Source of the DNA: Candidatus Omnitrophota bacterium
Lineage (GTDB): Bacteria; Omnitrophota; Gorgyraeia; B26-G9
NCBI GenBank assembly: GCA_016213925.1
Contig: JACQZH010000007.1
Coordinates: 30,951-94,950, forward strand
Direction of reading: 5' to 3'
Length of the DNA stretch: 64,000 nucleotides
In this document: positions 25,673 to 60,932 of the stretch, piece after piece
Layout of the letters: every line of letters begins with the position of its first letter
Numbering within the stretch: position 1 is the first letter of the stretch
Position numbers and translations under genes: made by a program
Notes under the pieces: generated by a model
Seen by the model: only the letters and a program-made list of their open reading frames with translations
What the model was told of the DNA's origin: nothing
Databases searched by the model: none

Positions 25673-27187
25673 ATGAAAGTTTTTTTAGCAGGATTTAATA
25701 TTGATACAGATGTTTTACGGCAGATGCAAGAAAAATCAGGGCGGCGCCAGGACATAACTCCGGAGGTTATTTGCGCTGCGTACGCGCGTATCAGCCGGGA
25801 TCCGCGTCCGGTTAATGAAATACGCCAGGATGCAAGAAACGAAGTTGAACGTTCCCGCAAATCAAATTCAACGATAATATTTAAAATGGGCCACCACTCT
25901 GTTGCCGAGCACGCGGTATTTAATCTGGATATTTTAGAGGTTTCCCGTTTCGCGATGGAAGAGCTTGAAAAGTTCAGGCTGTGTTCTTATACGGAAAAAT
26001 CGCAGCGCTATATTACGCTGGATAATGATTTTGTTGTTCCAGAGGAGATTAAAAACACTTGTTTTGAAGAGATGTTTATTTCCATGATTGAACAGCAGAA
26101 CAAAGCTTATTTTAAATTATTTGAACGGCTTAAAGAATATATTTTCGAAAAACACGCTCAATTGGCAAAGGACCCCAAAAATCATAATCTGCTGGAAGGA
26201 TGGGCAAAAGAAGATGCCCGTTATGTTACGGCACTGGCAACACATTCGCAAGTTGGGCAGACAATTAACGCGCGTAACCTGGAGCTTTTGCTGCGCAGAT
26301 TTGCTTCGCATCCTTTATCCGAAATAAAACAACTGGGAATTTCTATATATAATCAGATAGCAAGCATTGCTCCTTCTATTGTTATCTTCAATGAGGCGAA
26401 CGAACGTGACCTGAAAACGTATCCGGGTTTAAAAAAAGCGGCAAAAGAGCTGCTTGCAAAGGTGCCGCTTAAGCTTGCGCCGGGCACGCAGCAGAATGTA
26501 CAGCTGGTAGAATTTACGAAAAACGGAGATCTGGCAGTTGCGGCCGCGCTACTGCATGCGGCAACCGAGCTTACCTATGAAGATTGCCGCGTTGTTGCGG
26601 AAAAATTATCGCAAGAAGAGCAGAAAATGCTTTTTAAAAACGTATGGGAAAATATGCAGTTTTATGATTCCATGCTGCGCGAATTTGAATATACGAATCT
26701 CACTTTTAATATTGTTTTATCCGCGGCTTGTTTTGGACAGCTTAAACGCCACCGCATGTCAACAATATCAGCTCAAGAATATGATCCGAACCTGGGTGTT
26801 ACTGTGCCTGAATCGGTTAAAGAAACCGGCATGGAAAAATATTTTCAGGAAATTATTGATAAAACAAATGCTGTCTATAATAATATCAGCCGCGAAATTC
26901 CGATAGCCGCGCCATATATTTTAACTAACGCGCATCGTAAGAGAGTATTATTGCGCCTTAATGCGCGGGAACTTTACCACATATCCAGGTTAAGGGAAGA
27001 TACGCATTCTCAATGGGATATTCGTAATATTGCCGCGGGCATGAGCCAGAAAGCTAAACAGGTAATGCCGCTTACATTCGCTTGCATTGGAGGCAAAGAT
27101 AAGTATAGCGAGATTTACAAAAATCTTTATGGCCGGCTGCCAAAGGTAACTCAAGCTGTACTACCGCAGCCGCGGTCAATTACATAA
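25673..27187 (+). CDS. thyX: Flavin-dependent thymidylate synthase ThyX, tandem-duplicated (two ThyX domains in one 504-aa chain).
   Basis: Domain 1 has the SQRY end of the ThyX motif (RLCSYTEKSQRY). Domain 2 has the RHR beginning (RHRMSTISAQEY). Confidence 0.7.
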   Translation: MKVFLAGFNIDTDVLRQMQEKSGRRQDITPEVICAAYARISRDPRPVNEIRQDARNEVERSRKSNSTIIFKMGHHSVAEHAVFNLDILEVSRFAMEELEKFRLCSYTEKSQRYITLDNDFVVPEEIKNTCFEEMFISMIEQQNKAYFKLFERLKEYIFEKHAQLAKDPKNHNLLEGWAKEDARYVTALATHSQVGQTINARNLELLLRRFASHPLSEIKQLGISIYNQIASIAPSIVIFNEANERDLKTYPGLKKAAKELLAKVPLKLAPGTQQNVQLVEFTKNGDLAVAAALLHAATELTYEDCRVVAEKLSQEEQKMLFKNVWENMQFYDSMLREFEYTNLTFNIVLSAACFGQLKRHRMSTISAQEYDPNLGVTVPESVKETGMEKYFQEIIDKTNAVYNNISREIPIAAPYILTNAHRKRVLLRLNARELYHISRLREDTHSQWDIRNIAAGMSQKAKQVMPLTFACIGGKDKYSEIYKNLYGRLPKVTQAVLPQPRSIT

Positions 27188-45229: not shown

Positions 45230-45763
45230 ATGAAAGTAAATAAAGCGGTTTTTGCCGGGATGTTGTTTGTGATGATATTATCTAATGTTGCGGGCCTAAA
45301 CGCGCAGGAAGACGCGGTTTTATATAATCATGCCAGGCAGGCGGTTTTAAGCGGGGAAATAGATTTTGCGTTCAATTATTTTTATTCGCTGCTGCAGTAT
45401 TCAGCATCGTCAAGATATTATCAAGATGCGGTTTTTGCCTGCGGAGAATATTATTTTTTAAATAATGATTACTATGTCTCCTCAAAGATGTTTACGGATT
45501 TTATTAAGGCTTGCCCGCAATCAGAAGCATTTCCTTTTGCGATTGTTTATTTGAAGAAAATGGCCGCTTCTTTAGAAGAAGCAAACGCGGCATATGATTT
45601 TAAAAAAAACATCATCAAATTTAAACAGTTAAGCCTGCTTTTTAGCGAGTTTAAGGAATATGAATATGTTTCTCCGTTAGGGTTAAAGTACAAAGCGTTA
45701 TATTATATCGACAGAGCGGAATTTTATATAAATGGGGAGCTGTTTGAAAAAGTATATTTCTAA
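45230..45763 (+). CDS. Secreted hypothetical protein.
   Basis: Signal peptide; Tyr/Phe-rich; no motif recognised. Confidence 0.45.
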   Translation: MKVNKAVFAGMLFVMILSNVAGLNAQEDAVLYNHARQAVLSGEIDFAFNYFYSLLQYSASSRYYQDAVFACGEYYFLNNDYYVSSKMFTDFIKACPQSEAFPFAIVYLKKMAASLEEANAAYDFKKNIIKFKQLSLLFSEFKEYEYVSPLGLKYKALYYIDRAEFYINGELFEKVYF

Positions 45764-47837
45764 GCATTTTTTTGTCCGAACGGCAATTGTTATTCTGCTT
45801 GCGCTGGTTATATCAGGTTATTTTTTCGTCAAGGTTTTCTTTTCGGAAAACAAAGCGAAGATAGAATATCTTTCAAGCAGTTATTTAAATAAAAAAATTT
45901 CAATAGGCAGTATTCAATATGTTTTGCCCGCATTCATTGTTATAAAAGACATCAGGATCGGCGAATTCGCAGAACAGGCTGAAGCCATCCCGCTTTCTAT
46001 AAAAAAAATCACCTTGGTTTTTTCATTAGAGAAGTTGTTTGCGGAAAAAGAATTGGTGATCAGCCGTATCGGCCTCTCCGAGCCAGAATTTGATTTGGTT
46101 AGATATCCGCTTTTTTTAAAGGAAAGCATTGCGGGATTTATTAAGTTAATAAATTTTCTTACCCAGGGCAACCCCTTAAAAATAGAATTGGAAAATGCCG
46201 CTTTTATTGCCGGCCACCGAGGGAATAAGCGCACGACGATAATAGCAAATTCAAAAATAGGCATAGGGCCGGACGACCGTTTTTCCAGCCGCGGAATAAT
46301 TAGCGTGCAGCAGGCAGGATGGAACTTTCCCGTCAAAGGGCATAAAATATTTGCGGCTTTTCAGCCTGGCACGTTTAGGTATTCTGTTTATGCTGCGGTT
46401 ATCCCCGAAGGAGTGGTTATTGAGGACATAGCGGTTGAGAAGGATAATCTACAGGCCAAATTTCAGGGCCGGCTTGAGAACAATGTGCTGCGGGTTACAG
46501 GGAATGTTTATTCAGATGATACGCCGGTAAAAACTCAAGAATGGTTAGCTCAAAAAAATAAACTTATAAGGCAGCTTTACGCATTATTTAAATATGGGAA
46601 ATTACCGCAAAAAATCGGACAAAGAGATGCCGGGGTTAACTGCACGGATATTGATTGCGTCCTCGAATTTGCGTCGCGGGCTGTAAATTTAAAAAAAGCT
46701 ACTTTTAATCTTAACGGAATCCCCGTGCTGGTAAATGGAGATTTTAATTTTCAGCAGGGCATGCAGCTTAAGGCCGTAGTTACGACTTTTCCGGAGCAGC
46801 CTTTTTTTGGCGCCGGTACTGATCCGCGCAAACTAGGGTTGGATATTTTTTTAAATGGCAAAGAGGGCAAAAGCACCGGGGACATCACGCTTGATTTTTT
46901 CAAAATGATGGGTAAAAATCTTTCGAAGCAGAAACTGCGGGCTGATTTTAATAACGCGGCTTTTGGCATTTCTCCGGATATGCGGATAAAATTGCTCTTT
47001 GATGAGGCGGTGGTTTTTTATGAATTCGATAAAAATGAGCATGTTTTTAAGCTGCGAAACTGGGAATTGTTATGTAATTTTCTTGACGAAAAACTTAAAT
47101 TCGTAAAATTCAACGCGGGAATTTTTGACGGGCTATTAAAAGGATATATTGTTGTAGATGCTTCAGAGCCCGGGTGGAAAACTAAACAGAATTTAACGGT
47201 AAAAGATGTTAACGCGAGCGAGCTGGATGCGCTGCTTTTATCTTTATTCGGCATGTACCGCACTTTACCGGGAAAATTTCAAGAAAAAATAAGCGGTAAG
47301 TTTACCTGCGATGTTAATTATACAGGGTTTCGCAGCTCAATATTAAACGGGAACCTGGAAATCAGTCAAGGTGTTTTGGAGAATATGCAGTTTTTTTTAT
47401 GGATATCCGGTTTTTTTAATATTCCTTCATTAGCCAGCGTAAGCTTTGATTCTCTTTCTGCAGATTTTCTTGTAACAGACAGGATTGCCCGGCTGGATAA
47501 CGTATGTTTGAGCGGAAAGGATATTTCGCTGAAAGGCCAGCTGGATGTTAGGGATAATGAGCTGATCAGCGGTAGGCTTGCTTTACGGCTTTCGCGCCAG
47601 ATACTTAAAGAATCATCAAAATTTCAGCTGCTTTTGGGGTTGATAAGCCATGATATAAAAGAATTTGATTTTAATTTTCAATTTTCCGGATTATATCAAT
47701 CAATAAATTTTCAATGGCTGGAATCCGAATTTAAGCACAAAGTACAAAAAATGCTTCCCGGGTTTATAGAACAGGGCTTGGAGCGAAAAGTTGAAAGTGC
47801 AATAAAAGAAATTTCCGGGCCGCTTGTTGAAAAATAA
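45732..47837 (+). CDS. Membrane-anchored AsmA-like protein (701 aa).
   Basis: N-terminal signal anchor followed by a long beta-rich region in AsmA/TamB style; low-specificity call. Confidence 0.45.
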   Translation: MGSCLKKYISKHFFVRTAIVILLALVISGYFFVKVFFSENKAKIEYLSSSYLNKKISIGSIQYVLPAFIVIKDIRIGEFAEQAEAIPLSIKKITLVFSLEKLFAEKELVISRIGLSEPEFDLVRYPLFLKESIAGFIKLINFLTQGNPLKIELENAAFIAGHRGNKRTTIIANSKIGIGPDDRFSSRGIISVQQAGWNFPVKGHKIFAAFQPGTFRYSVYAAVIPEGVVIEDIAVEKDNLQAKFQGRLENNVLRVTGNVYSDDTPVKTQEWLAQKNKLIRQLYALFKYGKLPQKIGQRDAGVNCTDIDCVLEFASRAVNLKKATFNLNGIPVLVNGDFNFQQGMQLKAVVTTFPEQPFFGAGTDPRKLGLDIFLNGKEGKSTGDITLDFFKMMGKNLSKQKLRADFNNAAFGISPDMRIKLLFDEAVVFYEFDKNEHVFKLRNWELLCNFLDEKLKFVKFNAGIFDGLLKGYIVVDASEPGWKTKQNLTVKDVNASELDALLLSLFGMYRTLPGKFQEKISGKFTCDVNYTGFRSSILNGNLEISQGVLENMQFFLWISGFFNIPSLASVSFDSLSADFLVTDRIARLDNVCLSGKDISLKGQLDVRDNELISGRLALRLSRQILKESSKFQLLLGLISHDIKEFDFNFQFSGLYQSINFQWLESEFKHKVQKMLPGFIEQGLERKVESAIKEISGPLVEK

Positions 47838-51600: not shown

Positions 51601-52119
51601 ATGGAAATGGCGGTTAGGAAAATTCTTTCGATTCTGGAAGCTAATGAGCTTTTAAGCACAAAGTCAGCGGCAATAAGGCTGGATGATCCGCAGTTGGATG
51701 AGATAATTACGGATTTAAAGGATACCTTACTGGTTACGCCTAACGGGGTGGGGCTGGCCGCGGTACAAATTGGATATTTTAAAAGGGTATTTGTGTTAAA
51801 CGGGGATTATGTGGAAAAAGATTTGGATAAAAGTTCAATTTTTAAAGGCAGCAAGAATAAAATAATTACGTTTATTAATCCAAAAGTTATTTCCGGCAAG
51901 GGAACTGTGCGCGAGGAAGAGGGGTGTTTAAGCGTTCCGGGCTCATATGTAAGTGTTGAACGGCAAAAACTGGTAAAAGTAAAAGCTTTTAATGAAGCCA
52001 AAGAGCAGTTTTATGAGCGTTTTAGCGGATTAGCGGCAAGGGCAATACAGCAGGAAATCGATCATCTTAACGGTATTTTGATTATTGATTATATACGGAA
52101 GAAAGAGGCAGCCAAATGA
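51601..52119 (+). CDS. def: Peptide deformylase family protein with a non-canonical metal-binding motif (QEIDH in place of HEIDH).
   Basis: GLAAVQIG, EGCLSVPG and AIQQEIDHLNG motifs. Confidence 0.8.
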   Translation: MEMAVRKILSILEANELLSTKSAAIRLDDPQLDEIITDLKDTLLVTPNGVGLAAVQIGYFKRVFVLNGDYVEKDLDKSSIFKGSKNKIITFINPKVISGKGTVREEEGCLSVPGSYVSVERQKLVKVKAFNEAKEQFYERFSGLAARAIQQEIDHLNGILIIDYIRKKEAAK

Positions 52120-52922
52120 ATTTAATGAAAAAAAGATATGATTTTGAAGAGTTGTTTAATTTATATAAGAACAGAATTTACCGTTTAGGGTTGAGCGTTA
52201 GCCGTAACGAAAAAGACGCTGAAGATATCCTGCAGAACACATTTTTAAAAATTATACAGCATATTGAGGCATTTAAAAATAAAGCGCATTTATCCACCTG
52301 GATTTACAAAATAGCTTATAACGAAGCGTTGATGCTTTTACGCAAAAAACGCAGGCATTTGAGTCTTGAGGATTCCATTGATTATCAGGCTAAAGCAATC
52401 CCTTCGGGCCTGCTTGTTAATTGGGCGGCTTTTCCGGATCAGCGGTTATTAGAGGAGGAAATGAAAGCAAGGATTGACCGGGCAATTAAACACATGCCGA
52501 TAAAATACAGAATGCCGTTATTGCTGCAGCGAGTTGAAGGCCAGTCCTTAAAAAGCACCGCGGAAATTTTAGGGCTGAAGGAAAATTCCTTAAAGACAAG
52601 ATTGCACCGGGCGAACATGTTTGTTAAAGCGGAGATGGCGCAGTATTTTGAAGGAAAAAAACAATCCGAGGAAGAGCATCACGATGAGCGTTGCCGCGTT
52701 ATAACGGATTTCATTTATGATTATGCGGAAGGAACGCTTAAAAAAGGGAAGAAAATTGCTTTTGAAAAACACATAAATGACTGCGAACCATGCAAAATAT
52801 TTTTAAATGCTTATCAGCGGGCGATTTGCTTTACCAAGGCATTGTATTGCAGAGATTTACCGGAAGAACTACAGGCAAAAATTGAATCATTTATCATGGA
52901 AAAGAAAAAAATATCAATATAG
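52116..52922 (+). CDS. ECF-type sigma-70 factor with a fused C-terminal zf-HC2-like (anti-sigma-type) Cys/His domain.
   Basis: Sigma region 2 (ILQNTFLKI, WIYKIAYN) and region 4 (LKSTAEILGLKENSLKTRLHRA). The C-terminal H-x3-C-x2-C cluster reads HINDCEPCK ... C. Confidence 0.7.
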   Translation: MNLMKKRYDFEELFNLYKNRIYRLGLSVSRNEKDAEDILQNTFLKIIQHIEAFKNKAHLSTWIYKIAYNEALMLLRKKRRHLSLEDSIDYQAKAIPSGLLVNWAAFPDQRLLEEEMKARIDRAIKHMPIKYRMPLLLQRVEGQSLKSTAEILGLKENSLKTRLHRANMFVKAEMAQYFEGKKQSEEEHHDERCRVITDFIYDYAEGTLKKGKKIAFEKHINDCEPCKIFLNAYQRAICFTKALYCRDLPEELQAKIESFIMEKKKISI

Positions 52923-53061
52923 AGTTGTTTTTTAAGCAGGCATTGCTAGGATAATTAAAAACTTGAACAAAGTAACGTATTGGTATATATTAAAGTTAAT
53001 AATTATTTTTACTTCAGCTGTTTAAAAATTAGTTTGGTTTTACGCCAAAGGAGTGAAACAT

Positions 53062-53742
53062 ATGGACCAACGCAGAAAATTTGTACGGCTTGAAACAACA
53101 GGTAAAGTAATATATTCTCTGAAACCAGGCACAACAGAACGAAAAGAAGCAATCCTGCAGGATATAAGTATTTCCGGCGCAAGGGTAATAAGCGATGAAA
53201 TAATCACAACAGACAGAGAGTTCAGCATTATCCTGCAGATTCCCGGAATTAACCACGGGCTTAGCGGAAAGGCAACAGTCAAGTGGCAAAGAAGAATTAC
53301 GGAGCAAATGTTTGATACCGGCATTGAGTTTGTCCATATGCAGGAGGCAGACAGGAAGGCGCTGGTGAGTTTTGTCAGAGAAAGCGCCGGACGAATTGAT
53401 GATCAGAGAAAATACGTGCGTTGTCCGCTGGAAGCGGAGATTAAATACAAATTGTTAAGTCAAGGGAAAGATGTGACAAAAAATTGTAACTCTATTGATA
53501 TAAGTGTTTCAGGCTTGAAATTGTTTATGAAGGAAAAATTGGAAAAAGGCACTCAAATGCGTATTGAATTTAATCTTCCGGGAGAGAAGAATTTAATTGT
53601 CGCGGATTGCGTTGTGGTTGCCTGGTCAAAATCAGCTCCGGAAGAGATGTTTGTTACAGGCGCGGAATTTATTGATATCTCCGAAGAAAACGTTGAGAAA
53701 ATCAGCAAGTATGTAAAAGCTAAACTTGCGATAATTGAGTAA
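53062..53742 (+). CDS. Tandem PilZ-domain protein (two c-di-GMP-binding PilZ domains). Start at ATG 53062, which has an SD AAAGGAG.
   Basis: QRRKFVRLE ... DISISGARV and DQRKYVRCP ... DISVSGLKL (RxxxR + D-x-S-x-GG patterns). Confidence 0.7.
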   Translation: MDQRRKFVRLETTGKVIYSLKPGTTERKEAILQDISISGARVISDEIITTDREFSIILQIPGINHGLSGKATVKWQRRITEQMFDTGIEFVHMQEADRKALVSFVRESAGRIDDQRKYVRCPLEAEIKYKLLSQGKDVTKNCNSIDISVSGLKLFMKEKLEKGTQMRIEFNLPGEKNLIVADCVVVAWSKSAPEEMFVTGAEFIDISEENVEKISKYVKAKLAIIE

Positions 53743-54096: not shown

Positions 54097-54609
54097 ATGG
54101 AATTAACGGTTATTATAAATAAAAGAGCAAGCATCAGGAAGTTTAAAAACGAAAGCATCAGCAAAGAAGTGCTGAAGAGCCTAGTTGACGCGGGCAGGCG
54201 GGCTCCTTCGGCGCGCGCTGTTGAACCTTGGGAATTTATTGTTGTTTGCCGGCGCCAAACCCTGGAAAAAATAGCGCAGCTTGCCAGCGCAAACGCGGGG
54301 TTTCTCGCGGAATCTGCGGCAGCAATCGTTATATTCAGCCGCCAAACCAAATATTATTTGGAAGACGGATGCGCTGCTTGTGAAAATATTTTGCTTGCGG
54401 CGGTGAATGCCGGATTAGGCGCCTGCTGGATAGCCGGAGATAAAAAAGATTACGCTTCTGATGTAGTTAAGCTGCTTGGAGCGCCTTTAGCGATTAAGCT
54501 GGTGGCTATTATCGCGTTGGGAGTTCCTGCGGAAGAATTCCGGCAGTCCAAAAAACGCGGTTTGGATGATGTTTTACACTGGGAAAGCTATCAGCAGAAA
54601 GGGGCATAA
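54097..54609 (+). CDS. Nitroreductase-family protein.
   Basis: KRASIRKF, PSARAVEPWEF and ACENILLAAV motifs. Confidence 0.8.
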   Translation: MELTVIINKRASIRKFKNESISKEVLKSLVDAGRRAPSARAVEPWEFIVVCRRQTLEKIAQLASANAGFLAESAAAIVIFSRQTKYYLEDGCAACENILLAAVNAGLGACWIAGDKKDYASDVVKLLGAPLAIKLVAIIALGVPAEEFRQSKKRGLDDVLHWESYQQKGA

Positions 54610-54611
54610 AA

Positions 54612-54977
54612 ATGGAACAAGCTTTAGATAAGTTCAGTAAGGCTGCGGGCATTTTTTTGCTGGTTTTGAATGTAGTTATATTAGTTGTGTTAATTTTTAT
54701 TTTTTCCCGTCAGCCAAAGGAAAACCGCTACGACTTTAAGATACAGGAACGCAGTAACGAAATATATGTTTTTGATAAACAGGCGGGAAAACTTTATATA
54801 ACCGCTCCCCAGGTAATCGGAGAGTATTCTGATGAGGTTTGGACAGAGCTTGACCCTACGCAGGAAGGCAGGACTCTTTCATTCAAAGAGTTTTTACGCA
54901 GCAAGGCAAAGATGGATTTAAGGAATAAATTTATACAGGATAAAAAACAATTAGAAAACCTTGAACCACAGGGCTAG
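54612..54977 (+). CDS. Hypothetical membrane-anchored protein.
   Basis: Single N-terminal TM helix. Confidence 0.4.
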   Translation: MEQALDKFSKAAGIFLLVLNVVILVVLIFIFSRQPKENRYDFKIQERSNEIYVFDKQAGKLYITAPQVIGEYSDEVWTELDPTQEGRTLSFKEFLRSKAKMDLRNKFIQDKKQLENLEPQG

Positions 54978-55185
54978 AAAGAAAGGAAAACTCTGGACAT
55001 GGGAATGACAAGCGCGGTAAAAATACTTGTAGTGATTTGGACTCTTGTGGGCGTGGGGCTTTGTTTTTATCTGATAGGTTTTCCTGTTTTTATGAAAAAA
55101 AATATCGCGGTTATAGTTAGCCTGCTTGAGCGCATACTGGAAAATTTGGAAAAAAATAAATAAAATAGAAAAAAGAGATAGGACA

Positions 55186-55875
55186 ATGGAAGAAAAGAGA
55201 AAATTTACCCGTATTCAAGCTCTAAAAGAAGTGCGTTATAAGCACAAGGAGAGTAAAGACCTTATGGCTACTGTTCCGGTAAGAGATCTTAGCCTTATCG
55301 GGATCAGCATATACGCGCAGCGTAAATTTGATAGGGGGGAAAAACTGGAACTGGACATAACATTCCCCGGAGAGTCATTGCCGACGAGAGTAAGCGGAGA
55401 AGTCAGGTGGCAGTTAACCGATGAAGATAATAACTTTATAACCGGAGTGAGGTTTTTTGGCGTTGATGATGACGCGCAAAAACGGCTGACTAATTTTATA
55501 GACAAACATATATCCAGCAATGTTGAGCACAGGACTGCTGTGCGGTGCAAGCTGGAAGTTGAGGTTCAGTACGCTTTGCTTGAGAGCCCGGGAAAAACAT
55601 ATACAGCAAAAGCTGTGGACATAAGTAAGGGCGGAATGCGTATCAGGGTAAAGGAAAGAATTGAAAAAGGGCAATATTTAAAATTAAACCTTAGGCTCCC
55701 GAGTTATACTGATATAATGCAGATTGAAGGCAAAATTGTCTGGCTGCGCCCAGGCGATAGCGTTTACAAACAGGAAGCGGGAATAATTTTTTCGCAAATT
55801 TCCGATTTGGATAAAAAACTGATTTTGAGGTTTGTTGAAAGACAGTGCGAAAAAGAATTAAAAAGGAGCAATTAG
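55186..55875 (+). CDS. Tandem PilZ-domain protein (paralog of 53062). Start set at the internal ATG 55186.
   Basis: EKRKFTRIQ ... DLSLIGISI and EHRTAVRCK ... DISKGGMRI. Confidence 0.7.
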   Translation: MEEKRKFTRIQALKEVRYKHKESKDLMATVPVRDLSLIGISIYAQRKFDRGEKLELDITFPGESLPTRVSGEVRWQLTDEDNNFITGVRFFGVDDDAQKRLTNFIDKHISSNVEHRTAVRCKLEVEVQYALLESPGKTYTAKAVDISKGGMRIRVKERIEKGQYLKLNLRLPSYTDIMQIEGKIVWLRPGDSVYKQEAGIIFSQISDLDKKLILRFVERQCEKELKRSN

Positions 55876-55879
55876 GCAG

Positions 55880-56377
55880 ATGCGTAAGGTGTTTCTGGGG
55901 GTATTATTAGTTTTCTTGACGGGAGGGCTTGGTGTGGCAGAAGATATTACTAAAAAAGATATGATTGTTGTTTTAGAGACAACTCAGGGAAATATTGAAC
56001 TTAAGCTTATGCCTGAGATTGCTCCAAAAACTTGCGAAAATTTTATTAAGTTAGTAGAGAAAGGGTATTATAACGGTATAATCTTTGGTTTTAGCGGCCA
56101 GTCATTTTGGGGCAAGCCTTTTGCAGATGAATTTTCGCCAAAAGCAAGCTTTAACCGCAAGGGAATTTTGGCAATGGCCAATGCCGGGCCGAATACCAAT
56201 GGAAGCCAATTTTTTATTACGACAACAGAAACTCCCTGGCTTAATTCTAAACATACTATTTTCGGGGAAGTGAGCAATGGCTATGAAATTGTTAAGGCTA
56301 TTGAGAATACGCAAACAGACGCTGCGGATAAACCGGTCATAGAACAAAAAATCATCAAAGCGCATCTTAAAGAATAA
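55880..56377 (+). CDS. Cyclophilin-type peptidyl-prolyl isomerase homolog with signal peptide, lacking the segment that normally carries the catalytic Arg (about 18 aa missing in frame).
   Basis: ILAMANAGPNTNGSQFFITT is canonical. However, YNGIIF is followed directly by GFSGQSFWGKPFADEF, so the FHRVIPGFMIQGGD block is absent. Confidence 0.8.
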   Translation: MRKVFLGVLLVFLTGGLGVAEDITKKDMIVVLETTQGNIELKLMPEIAPKTCENFIKLVEKGYYNGIIFGFSGQSFWGKPFADEFSPKASFNRKGILAMANAGPNTNGSQFFITTTETPWLNSKHTIFGEVSNGYEIVKAIENTQTDAADKPVIEQKIIKAHLKE

Positions 56378-56382
56378 GTTTT

Positions 56383-58809
56383 TTAGATGCTTTGTCCAAT
56401 CAGGGTTTGCTGAGTATTCAAATGCTGTTTAGTTATAGTAATATTAGCTGGAACGGCTTTTTGCAAAACAGCTGCGGGATTAGGCTGTTCAGCGGCAAAA
56501 GGTAAATAAATCGTAAAACATGACCCTTTCCCTTCTCCCTCGCTTGTTACTTCCATATATCCGTTCATTTTTTCAAGCAAAGGAAGCACTGAAGCTAAGC
56601 CGATTGCAGAGCCTTCGATCTGGGGGTTAGTTTCGGATTGGCCTAAACGGTCAAAGCGTTGCCCGACGCGGTAGAGATTTTCTTTGGCAATGCCAATACC
56701 GGTATCGGAAATACTGACGCTGATTACTTGATTATTATTCCGTGTTGAGGCCTCAAGCGCGGCTTTAACAGTGATTGTTCCTCCTTGAGGAGAATATTTA
56801 ACCGCGTTGCTTAACAGATTAAAAATAATGCGCCTAAACGCGTCTTCGTTAACAAAACCGGTTAGAGATTGTTTGATGTCAATATCCAAACTGAAATTTT
56901 TGGCAGACGCATATTCGATATGAGGCCGGTTCTGTTCGACGCATTCACTAAGCAACTGTGAAATATTTCCGGATTTTACGTTAAGCTGTGAAGTTGAGGC
57001 GTCCGGGGTATTTAATTTGCTGAAAAACGCATCATTAAGCTTTGATATCTTTGGCGATTCGTTTACTATGATCGTAATGTATTGTTTGATAGTTTCCGGC
57101 AGGGAGCTTGAAATAGATTCATCGCTTATAAGCGCTTCAAAAGCATTCACCGCATCTTGAAATTCAATAAAGGCTTTTTTGTATTCCGCGGCAAAATCAT
57201 AGAATATGCTTGAAGTTTGCCTGATCAGAAATTCTAATTTTTCTTCGCTGATTATCCTTAAAAGGTTTTCAAGTTGAGCGGTTGAAGTGAGGTATTCTTT
57301 TGCCGCGTGATATAAAGCTTCTTCCAAGAGCCCGATATTACGGTTTGTTTTAAAAAACGGCTTAGTTTGCGCGTGCAGCGCTTCAAGGATACGAAATGAG
57401 GATGCCTTAAGCAGATTTTTTTGCAATATCTGCCATACGGATAAAATTTCTTCTTCCGAAGCTGATTCGTTTTGCAGGTGCTCCGGAAGCAGTGCGATTG
57501 TTTCCTGCGCAGCAGCGGATTCTTTTAATTCAGGAGAATCTTTTGCCGGAGATTCTTCAGAAAGCTCCTTAAGTTTTTGTTCGAAATCATGGATCAACTG
57601 TTTAAGATTTAATAAAAAAGAACGCTCCTGTTTGGCAGCGTGAAATAGCCCGAACATCGGCAGTAAGATACTGATTTTTTTTTCAAAGCTTTTAATGGAG
57701 TTTTCTAAAATAACAGCTTTTTCCTTGATTAAAACGCAGGCAGTTTTGACTTTTTCAAGTTCAGGATTTTCCGCGAGGTTTTCGGTGGTAATTTTTCTAT
57801 TTGTCCTGTCGGCAAACCCGGCAGTAACAATTAACGGGTTTTTTGTATCATGCAGGAACGCTTCTGCTTCAAATAATGTGCTGATAGCGTGCAGTTGTCT
57901 TAATTTATCGTCTAAGCCCATAGTTGAATAAGCAAGCTCCTTTTTTGCGCGTAAAAGCTGAAGCGCAAGGCCGGTTTGATCGGAAATTGCCTGCAAGAGA
58001 ATAAGTTTTTCTTTCTTTGCCTGTTCGTTTTCAAACAAGGCTTCTCCTGTTTTCCAATTGTTAATAAGTATTTGCGCTATGGGGGAGTCGTTTTTATCCA
58101 GAACCGCAAAATGAAGAGATTCGTTTACGCGGTTAAGCCAGTCCGGGCGTATTTTCCCGACAAGCCAGATCCCCAATTTTGCGGGATAAACGCAGAAGGG
58201 AATAGAAAAATCGATAAAAGAAAAAATCGCTTTGCGGAAAAATGAGGATGACTCAAACCGGTATAAAAATATGTCCTTAAAAAGCCAGGGAGTGTATACA
58301 TCGGTGCTTTCGCTTCTTTTTTTAATGTGAAGATAAGGCGATTCTCTGCGGGCATTTTTTAAGTTATTAATTTTTTCGTCATTATCCGGCAAAGGGCTCC
58401 AGCTTACCTGCCAGCGCCTTCCTCCTTTCATGCCGTGGCGCAGAACTGTGCGTAAAGAAAATCCATTCCCCATGGGTTCGTGTTTTTTTACGATATAAAA
58501 GGCAACTCCCTTAAAACCTAATATCCGTGTGATATAATCTTTAACCAGGTCGGCAACCTGTTCTTCATTCTCAGCCTGAAGCAGCCAACCGCTTAATTGG
58601 GAAAGATGTTCATACTGGTTTTTTGACGATGGAATCCTACTGCTGTAAATAGAGGCAAAGGTATCTTTATACGTATTTGTCTTCAGGTTTAATTCCGGGG
58701 AAAGGCAGTATTTTTGCCAAGAGGCGTTTGCTCCGGCAAAACAATCCGCTGCGATTGACTGAACAATAAAGGCGCTGACAACAAATAAAGTTAAAATTTT
58801 TATTTTCAT
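56383..58809 (-). CDS. Sensor histidine kinase with a large N-terminal extracytoplasmic/sensor region.
   Basis: H-box LHDTKNPL, N-box FNLLSNAVKYS, G1 ISDTGIGI, and a signal peptide. Confidence 0.8.
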   Translation of the reverse strand: MKIKILTLFVVSAFIVQSIAADCFAGANASWQKYCLSPELNLKTNTYKDTFASIYSSRIPSSKNQYEHLSQLSGWLLQAENEEQVADLVKDYITRILGFKGVAFYIVKKHEPMGNGFSLRTVLRHGMKGGRRWQVSWSPLPDNDEKINNLKNARRESPYLHIKKRSESTDVYTPWLFKDIFLYRFESSSFFRKAIFSFIDFSIPFCVYPAKLGIWLVGKIRPDWLNRVNESLHFAVLDKNDSPIAQILINNWKTGEALFENEQAKKEKLILLQAISDQTGLALQLLRAKKELAYSTMGLDDKLRQLHAISTLFEAEAFLHDTKNPLIVTAGFADRTNRKITTENLAENPELEKVKTACVLIKEKAVILENSIKSFEKKISILLPMFGLFHAAKQERSFLLNLKQLIHDFEQKLKELSEESPAKDSPELKESAAAQETIALLPEHLQNESASEEEILSVWQILQKNLLKASSFRILEALHAQTKPFFKTNRNIGLLEEALYHAAKEYLTSTAQLENLLRIISEEKLEFLIRQTSSIFYDFAAEYKKAFIEFQDAVNAFEALISDESISSSLPETIKQYITIIVNESPKISKLNDAFFSKLNTPDASTSQLNVKSGNISQLLSECVEQNRPHIEYASAKNFSLDIDIKQSLTGFVNEDAFRRIIFNLLSNAVKYSPQGGTITVKAALEASTRNNNQVISVSISDTGIGIAKENLYRVGQRFDRLGQSETNPQIEGSAIGLASVLPLLEKMNGYMEVTSEGEGKGSCFTIYLPFAAEQPNPAAVLQKAVPANITITKQHLNTQQTLIGQSI

Positions 58810-59087
58810 GTATTTACCTTAAAAAAACAATGGGTATAATAATATATTTATTATACTAAAAAATATGTAAAGTGTGTAAGTTTACCATATCTTTTGGTAT
58901 TTTGCAAACCAGAAGAGGTGTGTTATAATCAAGAAGGCTGTCCTTTGGCGTAAGGCAGCGGCAAAATCATATAAATAAATAGGATACAACGCGGGTTACT
59001 TGATAGCCGCAAGGCCGGTGACTTTCCGTTATAATCAAGGCAGATAGGCAGTCCGCGGGGTTCCGCTTTAAAAGGGGTGAAGATATT

Positions 59088-59480
59088 TTGACAGACGAAC
59101 GCAGGAAAAATCGTAGAGTAATTCAAGGCCATGAGATAAGCTTTCTGATTATTGACAAAACAAACCCGGGAAAACTTTCCGCTAAAGATGTGTTGGTTTT
59201 TCGCCAGGCGCTGCTTTTGGATGTTTCTTCGACAGGCTTGAGCATAGAGACAGAAGAATTAAACGAACAATGGATCCCTTTTTTTGAGTCAGGGGAGTTT
59301 CTTGTCGGGGTTTGTATTCAGCTTGTAAGCGGCGCGGAACCGGTTTGCGCGCTTACCAAAACAATGTGGATAAAAGATTCTGCTTCAAAAAGAAGGACGC
59401 AAATACTGGGTTTGAAGCTTATTAACATCAGCAGCGTAGATATGATAAAAATCAGGAATATTATAATCAGACATGGCTAA
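59088..59480 (+). CDS. Single PilZ-domain protein.
   Basis: RRKNRRV ... DVSSTGLSI. Confidence 0.55.
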   Translation: MTDERRKNRRVIQGHEISFLIIDKTNPGKLSAKDVLVFRQALLLDVSSTGLSIETEELNEQWIPFFESGEFLVGVCIQLVSGAEPVCALTKTMWIKDSASKRRTQILGLKLINISSVDMIKIRNIIIRHG

Positions 59481-59506: not shown

Positions 59507-60163
59507 ATGGATAGTACCAATGGTACAAAAGAGCTGTTTATTTTTGATTTAGACGGCACGCTGGTTGACGCGTATAAAGCGATAGAGCAGAGCTTGAATT
59601 TTACGAGGAAAAAACTTGGTTATAGTAAAGTTAGTTATGCGGCGGTAAAAAAAAATATCGGCAACGGAGACAGGAATTTTATCGCGGTTTTTTTTCCTCC
59701 GCAGGATGTGGAAAATGCCCTAGCGCTCTACCGCAGGCATCATAAAGGAGCGCTTAAAAAATATTCCTATTTAAAACCGTATGCTAAAGTGCTGCTTTTA
59801 CGCTTAAAACAAGGAAAAAAAATCACAGCGATTGCTTCTAACCGGCCCGCGGCTTATACAAAAGTCATTATCAAGGCAGTAGGCATCGATAAATATCTGG
59901 ATTATGTCCTTTGCGCTGACCAGATTAACAGCCTTAAGCCCAAACCAAAAATTTTATACGAGATTTTAAAAAAATTTAAAATAAAAAAACATCAGGCAGT
60001 TTATGTTGGAGACATGGATGTTGATATGCAAACCGCGGAGCGCGCGAAAATAGAGGCCTTATTTATTGCCGGAGGCTCAAGCTCGATAAAAGATGTTAAA
60101 AAATATAAAAATAAAAAAGTTATCTATTCGTTAAAAGATGTTTTAAAATATTGCCGGAATTAA
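59507..60163 (+). CDS. HAD-superfamily hydrolase (phosphoglycolate phosphatase-like).
   Basis: FIFDLDGTLVD motif I, and GD-x-x-D motif near the C-terminus (VGDMDVDM). Confidence 0.8.
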   Translation: MDSTNGTKELFIFDLDGTLVDAYKAIEQSLNFTRKKLGYSKVSYAAVKKNIGNGDRNFIAVFFPPQDVENALALYRRHHKGALKKYSYLKPYAKVLLLRLKQGKKITAIASNRPAAYTKVIIKAVGIDKYLDYVLCADQINSLKPKPKILYEILKKFKIKKHQAVYVGDMDVDMQTAERAKIEALFIAGGSSSIKDVKKYKNKKVIYSLKDVLKYCRN

Positions 60164-60179
60164 CCAAAAGAACCGCGAT

Positions 60180-60932
60180 ATGCGTATTGTAAAAATCGTC
60201 CATAAAACTAAGCCAAGCTGGGGCATTGTCAAAGCGGACAGGGTTATACTGCTCAAAGGCGATCCTTTTGAGCGGATATCATGCGCCGGAGAATCAATTG
60301 CTTTGGCGCAGGCAAGGTTTTTGGCGCCTGCCGCTGCCAGTAAGATTGTTCTGGCCGGATTGAATTATAAAGGCCATGCCGGAGAGCTGGGCATGAAAAT
60401 TCCTAAAGAGCCGGTAATCTTTTTAAAGCCGGTGACTTCTTTGATTGCGCACAAAGATAATATTATTTACCCAAAAGGGGTAATCAGGCTGGATTATGAA
60501 GCGGAACTTGCCGCGGTTATAAGAAAAAAAGCGAAAAACATCGCCGAAAAAAAGGTAAAGGAGTATATTTTAGGGTATACTTGCTTAAATGATGTTACTG
60601 CGCGTGATTTACAGAAAAAAGACGCTCAATGGACAAGAGCAAAATCCTTTGACACCTTTTGTCCGTGCGGCCCATGGCTTGAAACAGAAATAGATCCAGC
60701 TTCTTTGGCGGTAAAATCATATCTTAATGGTAAATTAAAGCAGGATTCAAATACTTCTAATTTTATCTTTTCTTTGGAATGTCTGGTTGCTTTTATTTCC
60801 CGGATTATGACGCTTCTCCCCGGTGATATTATCTCTACCGGTACTCCTCCGGGAGTCGGGAAGATGAAGCCTGGTGATTGCATAGAAGTATGCATTGAAG
60901 GCATTGGCACATTAAGCAACCGGGTTGCGTAG
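60180..60932 (+). CDS. Fumarylacetoacetate hydrolase (FAH) family protein.
   Basis: DYEAELAAVI, TCLNDVTARDLQ and PPGVG motifs. Confidence 0.85.
   Translation: MRIVKIVHKTKPSWGIVKADRVILLKGDPFERISCAGESIALAQARFLAPAAASKIVLAGLNYKGHAGELGMKIPKEPVIFLKPVTSLIAHKDNIIYPKGVIRLDYEAELAAVIRKKAKNIAEKKVKEYILGYTCLNDVTARDLQKKDAQWTRAKSFDTFCPCGPWLETEIDPASLAVKSYLNGKLKQDSNTSNFIFSLECLVAFISRIMTLLPGDIISTGTPPGVGKMKPGDCIEVCIEGIGTLSNRVA

Follow-up and report, generated by a model that had tools for sequence, protein, structure and literature searches.

A cyclophilin-type PPIase gene in the 64,000-nucleotide stretch of Omnitrophota DNA analyzed here (hereafter the window) lacks 51 nt in frame relative to its orthologs, and with them the 17-residue segment that carries the catalytic Arg. 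We consider this gene to be probably a real, lineage-specific and recent loss-of-function allele of a predicted exported cyclophilin. That the deletion is a real allele in the sampled population, perhaps not fixed there, is the safer part of this reading and in our judgment highly likely.

The cyclophilin gene and its missing segment

The 165-aa product of the gene (Table 1) has the same sequence as NCBI MBI4845105.1, which comes from a 95,232-bp contig of a Candidatus Omnitrophica MAG. Its original identification as a cyclophilin homolog was borne out by Pfam, which found PF00160 at 2.8e-39 and 135.3 bits (cut-off 21.7) with the match broken into two stretches, and by alignments to solved cyclophilins. 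In the phmmer search, 162 PDB cyclophilin sequences matched at E <= 0.001, with Arabidopsis CYP71 (E = 2.9e-37), human PPIL2 and human PPIL1 (about 7e-36) at the top. Homology to the PPIL1/CYP71-like subfamily of PF00160 PPIases is clear, and part of the active site is kept (A, N, A, Q, F, W, L, H).

The N-terminus, MRKVFLGVLLVFLTGGLGVA/ED, reads as an n/h/c layout that is common to the orthologs, with no lipobox; homologs have an N-terminus of like kind, which is a helix in the AF2 model of the full-length homolog. This signal-peptide-like segment predicts that the product goes to the periplasm, in agreement with the earlier suggestion of a secreted protein, and the functional analogues would be bacterial cyclophilins that are exported, E. 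coli PpiA among them, whose N-terminal export signal the predicted one resembles. Apart from the deletion, the ORF bears no lesion; it is complete and preceded by a good RBS, a state that would also fit a protein still in use. Scanning for promoters and terminators around the gene gave nothing above shuffle expectation, and neither a second cyclophilin gene nor a displaced copy of the lost segment was found in the window.

Seventeen residues, HRVIK-x-FMIQGGDPTGT, are absent between F69 (56084-56086) and G70 (56087-56089). The gap was placed by alignments to solved cyclophilins, the 21 nearest homologs, human CypA and E. coli PpiB, and the lost block corresponds to H54-N71 of human CypA (18 residues in CypA numbering). 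Every phmmer alignment to a PDB entry among the matches listed has 17 gap columns after 'YYNGIIF', and the pairwise comparisons with human CypA and E. coli PpiB both show the 17 residues as missing, with the frame preserved as first described. Since none of the 119 best homologs has a gap in these 17 columns, the gap is not chance alignment noise. The equivalent of Arg55 lies inside the gap, confirming that the catalytic Arg is missing, and it has not moved elsewhere: the sole Arg of the mature protein, R93, sits in a variable loop, so there is no substitute catalytic Arg. The extent of the lost block had to be corrected. The segment with Arg, Met and Gln is indeed gone, but the Phe of 'FHRV' is kept, and the loss reaches through the GGDPTGT loop, beyond the limit first given.

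The junction is not a clean cut, as GF and a possible hybrid Ser codon are found there. F71 occurs at its position in none of 119 homologs, and S72 (normally Gly) and F76 each in one of 119. These make three of the seven rare residues of the protein, all within seven positions after the junction, with p = 0.003 for that stretch and p = 0.14 when the cluster is treated as a scan statistic; an equal cluster is present somewhere in 4 of 119 homologs. The HMMER alignment to CYP71 gives a two-gap version, IIF-----GF------------SGQS, and the DNA may accordingly be read in two ways, as a single 51-nt gap or as gaps of 15 nt and 36 nt that keep a native Gly-Phe. In the compound reading, the 15-nt loss would take out HRVIK, and the 36-nt loss would run from inside the Met61 codon to inside a Gly codon (A/TG ... 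G/GC), leaving the hybrid codon AGC for Ser. We infer that this would need no point substitution if the ancestor had KGF, as the homologous loci L002, L003 and L007 do. In the single-event reading, one 51-nt deletion would have been followed by substitutions. A pair of frameshifts was discarded as the origin of the odd junction residues: on either side of the junction the frame agrees with the orthologs, with GQS read in frame.

Table 1. Coordinates of the cyclophilin gene, its parts and its neighbors (window positions unless a locus is named)
Feature	Position	Strand	Basis
Cyclophilin-type PPIase gene with deletion, 165 aa	55880..56377	+	Pfam, translation
Signal-peptide-like N-terminus (MRK, hydrophobic core, GVA/ED)	55880..55939	+	Sequence reading
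RBS AGGAG, 11 nt upstream of the cyclophilin ATG	55864..55868	+	Sequence
Deletion junction F69 / G70 F71 S72; 51 nt (17 codons) missing vs orthologs	56084..56095	+	Alignments
GFSGQSF, seven residues 3' of the junction	56087..56107	+	Rare-residue count
Retained half active site (A100 N101 A102, Q110, F112, W120, L121, H125)	56177..56254	+	Alignments
Upstream PilZ-domain gene	about 55186..55875 (wider span 55126..55875)	+	Gene calls, Pfam
Upstream synteny anchors (nitroreductase, 121-aa ORF, 54-aa membrane ORF)	54097..55163	+	Synteny
Variable slot, cyclophilin to HAD hydrolase: 808-aa HATPase_c (-), 130-aa PilZ (+)	56383..59480	.	Gene calls
Downstream synteny anchors (HAD hydrolase, FAA hydrolase)	59507..60932	+	Synteny
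PilZ-cyclophilin pair	window 55186-56377; L003 541-1790; L004 2816-4049; L006 2816-4046		

Orthologs and uniqueness of the deletion

Four syntenic loci, L003 (ENA ERZ27247960), L004 and L005 (JGI 3300033141 and 3300033153) and L006 (NCBI GCA_004196255.1), all encode full-length orthologs of 181-187 aa with HRVIK.FMIQGGDPTGT intact, which makes the window gene the ortholog of a normally complete enzyme and its deletion a derived state. The common gene order is PilZ, nitroreductase, small ORF, PilZ, cyclophilin, variable slot, HAD hydrolase and FAA hydrolase, preceded by a deformylase at L004, L005 and L006. L003 is collinear with the window over five genes and has a cyclophilin of 187 aa, and the cyclophilins of L004, L005 and L006 are intact at 181-182 aa, these loci carrying two of the best cyclophilin matches. 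Outside the gap, the window protein is 74-77% identical to bacterial orthologs, and its mature domain is 74-76% identical to those at the syntenic loci. The window differs from the four loci in the content of the slot after the cyclophilin as well as in cyclophilin length. The loci of two other high-scoring homologs, P0013 and P0002, were dropped as orthologs because they are not syntenic.

As far as the databases reach, the deletion is private to one sequence. MBI4845105.1 forms a one-member cluster among 5.8 billion clusters, and an exact-protein look-up in public assemblies returned no other record. A junction-centered 48-aa phmmer query found no deleted relative among 1.84 billion representative proteins: in its 245 matches, the single-stretch alignments of the full query span 65 residues, 17 more than the query has, and all nine matches whose best stretch passed the junction carry the segment on direct inspection. 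When a 71-aa junction peptide was searched against the 5.8-billion-cluster database, only 17 short fragments were returned, none from this gene and all with HRVI...QGGDP. In JGI metagenome contigs, the back-translated DNA pattern of the specific junction had no match, and the generalized pattern YY[ND]GxxFGxxGxSxWG had one, which is not a cyclophilin. This match (L008 6615-6661, peptide ...ERYYNGGPFGPAGRTLWGYPIV...) was rejected as fortuitous; it falls in a 436-aa non-cyclophilin ORF on a high-GC JGI contig, and by eye, that ORF resembles a phage capsid protein. In the literature, our search turned up only cyclophilin isoforms inactivated by substitution, and no natural deletion of beta3-beta4.

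The sampling of the lineage bears on this singularity. The neighboring PilZ protein has one database homolog only, at 36% identity and on the L003 contig, suggesting an isolated and poorly sampled lineage, and therefore an allele that is seen exactly once. Scanning contigs with the same PilZ neighbor recovered only an unrelated Oligoflexales match at 31% identity, indicating that the GTDB representatives include neither the source MAG nor its close kin.

Effects on the protein and origin of the allele

The cyclophilin active site is made up of the invariant Arg55 together with Phe60, Met61, Gln63, Ala101, Phe113, Trp121, Leu122 and His126 (Davis et al. 2010, PMC2911226). In the window protein, no alignment contains the equivalents of Met61 and Gln63, and that of Phe60 is present only when two gaps are opened and missing when there is one, while the retained residues correspond to CypA A101, N102, A103, Q111, F113, W121, L122 and H126. 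Because Arg55, Met61 and Gln63 are missing, and judging by their assigned roles in the active site (Davis et al. 2010, PMC2911226), the protein almost certainly has no PPIase activity left. The same survey found PPIL4, in which Arg55 is replaced by Asn, to be inactive on standard substrates (Davis et al. 2010, PMC2911226). The isomerase-dead part of the original prediction thus stands as a predicted loss of activity, following from the loss of the catalytic Arg, Met and Gln segment.

The fold is probably damaged as well. An AF2 control on the nearest full-length homolog, P0002, built from the same 67-sequence alignment as the model of the window protein, shows the deleted block as strands 68-73 and 77-80, with pLDDT of 91-99 over the domain. 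The deleted protein is modeled with six strands; pLDDT is 79-82 near the junction, and the five models range widely, from 72.6 to 88.4. According to these models, the deletion would take beta3, beta4 and the loop after them, leaving the eight-stranded barrel incomplete, and because two core strands are absent, the product is probably unable to close its beta-barrel. Foldseek superposed the model of the deleted protein on PPIL1-type cyclophilins with a TMq of 0.90, which is expected and uninformative on stability because the AF2 model is driven by the homolog alignment.

The remainder of the gene is not detectably decaying. At columns conserved to at least 90%, the protein deviates in 3 of 78, compared with 1.3 +/- 1.1 in the homologs (maximum 5), and with a mean identity of 0.720 to the set, compared with 0.758 +/- 0.019, it ranks third in divergence among 67 sequences. 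In three-taxon trees with L004 and L006, the share of the window branch is 0.46 for the cyclophilin, within the 0.28-0.49 of five neighboring genes, so there is no clear acceleration. The private substitutions of the cyclophilin (15 in the window, 8 in L004 and 7 in L006) are not significant against the pooled neighbors by a rough normal approximation. An analysis of synonymous sites was abandoned, as third codon positions are only 43% identical to those of the orthologs; dS is saturated, which makes dN/dS and the ancestral sequence at the breakpoints unrecoverable.

We propose that the ancestor was a conserved exported cyclophilin of Omnitrophota-like bacteria, encoded in a PilZ-cyclophilin gene pair, and that the lineage or population would then have lost 51 nt in frame, either in one event or as the compound of 15 nt and 36 nt. 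Along with beta3, beta4 and the next loop would have gone R55, M61 and Q63 (CypA numbering), and Phe60 too unless two gaps are involved. The gene would now be a strain variant or a pseudogene in the making. A recent origin of the lesion is probable, because half of the active site is intact and there are no other lesions, and a recent lesion fits better than a long-established new function because residues that matter only to an active enzyme remain perfectly conserved. The protein has 7 rare residues, against 2.6 +/- 1.9 in the homologs, which together with its third-highest divergence suggests that the deletion may not be very recent.

An artefact of assembly, consensus calling or a minor variant is unlikely. 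It would mean that the dominant genome has a normal cyclophilin of ~182 aa and that the contig follows a rare indel path or a local misassembly, as could be expected from a singleton sequence on one MAG contig, with its exact protein recorded in no other assembly, and from a gene whose remainder looks fully functional, as it would if an artefact had struck a healthy gene. De Bruijn collapse would need the lost segment to be flanked by direct repeats about as long as a k-mer. In five homologous genes, however, the breakpoints show no microhomology at all, and the two breakpoint neighborhoods (+/-25 nt) have words of 4-7 nt in common at most; with no repeat above 7 nt in the orthologs, repeat collapse is improbable, and the conserved protein sequence on both flanks leaves a long repeat no space. 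An assembler dropping 51 nt from a healthy gene would also leave native flanks, whereas the junction, with its F71 and S72, is not a splice of them. The absence of microhomology and the rare residues at the junction therefore favor a real mutational event over clean excision by an assembler. Further against an artefact, the missing length divides exactly by three, and no comparable gaps were seen in glycogen phosphorylase (which matches its full 713-position Pfam profile), EF-G or MutS, or in five syntenic neighbor genes compared with their orthologs.

Still less probable is a remodeled remnant under selection, that is, a PPIase-dead periplasmic binding or holdase protein in which F71 and F76 compensate for the excised hairpin. 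The intact ORF, RBS and signal-peptide-like N-terminus are consistent with such a protein, as are the clustering of rare residues beside the junction of an otherwise conserved sequence, the lack of significant rate acceleration in the remainder, and the best AF2 model, a confident cyclophilin-like remnant. There is precedent for inactive cyclophilin domains, as those of human PPIL4, PPIL2 and SDCCAG-10 have been proposed to bind proline peptides (PMC2911226). Like PPIL4, PPIL2, PPIL6 and SDCCAG-10/CWC27 (PMC2911226), the window protein is a cyclophilin homolog with active-site residues missing. However, those are conserved families with point substitutions in a full eight-strand barrel, whereas here two core strands are gone, and the 17-residue gap over beta3, beta4, the loop and the invariant Arg sets the protein apart from all PF00160 family members examined. 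No second example exists in any database searched, and the inactivating change is shared by no independent sequence, neither among the 119 homologs nor at the four syntenic loci. It is hard to see what the conserved half-site (ANA, Q, F, W, L, H) would be for when Arg55, Met61 and Gln63 are lacking, a compound deletion accounts for F71 and S72 with no later adaptive substitution, and AF2 confidence is lower and more scattered than in the full-length control. The idea of an evolved isomerase-dead chaperone or binder, raised in the original prediction, consequently did not hold up, given the loss of two core strands in a single sequence whose syntenic orthologs are all full length. The most specific version, in which F71, S72 and F76 patch a six-strand remnant into a stable, exported, PPIase-independent proline-peptide binder or holdase under selection and co-expressed with the upstream PilZ protein, is very improbable, although if true it would represent a natural 'minimal cyclophilin' fold.

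As a loss-of-function allele, the gene matters little as it stands, being one damaged allele, from one MAG, in an enzyme family that is very well known. It does illustrate how automatic annotation ('peptidylprolyl isomerase', MBI4845105.1) lets through a gene without its catalytic core. If the allele were confirmed and the protein stable, it would offer a natural experiment on how much of the cyclophilin barrel can be spared.

The PilZ-cyclophilin pair and other observations in the window

The stop codon of the upstream PilZ gene lies 4 nt ahead of the cyclophilin start, and the pair, which is kept in the relatives, is probably transcribed as one unit. At each of four loci (the window, L003, L004 and L006), the gene directly ahead of the predicted exported cyclophilin encodes a PilZ protein of two domains, putatively a receptor for c-di-GMP, and the two genes are 1-13 nt apart or overlap. 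This looks like a conserved operon tying c-di-GMP sensing to a periplasmic folding enzyme, and the pair may outweigh the deletion in biological interest. Three PilZ-domain genes lie in one 6.5-kb part of the window (53053-53742, 55126-55875 and 59088-59480), two of them with duplicated PilZ domains.

The variable slot that follows the cyclophilin is empty in L003, holds a 45-aa ORF in L004 and encodes a 617-aa TPR protein in L006. The 808-aa protein that occupies it in the window is encoded convergently, with its stop 5 nt from the cyclophilin stop, and Pfam recognizes only a C-terminal HATPase_c domain in it, with no HisKA match.

Elsewhere in the window, no Pfam match at E <= 0.001 was found for the 701-aa ORF at 45732-47837. 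The ORF at 25673-27187 encodes a ThyX protein (Thy1, PF02511) of 504 aa with two Thy1 stretches, about double the usual length, suggesting a tandem fusion. At 52116-52922, a 268-aa ORF fuses ECF sigma-70 regions 2 and 4 with a zf-HC2 anti-sigma zinc finger, and its start overlaps the stop of the peptide deformylase gene. In L004, PilZ comes immediately after the deformylase, so the sigma/zf-HC2 gene represents either an insertion in the window or a loss in L004.
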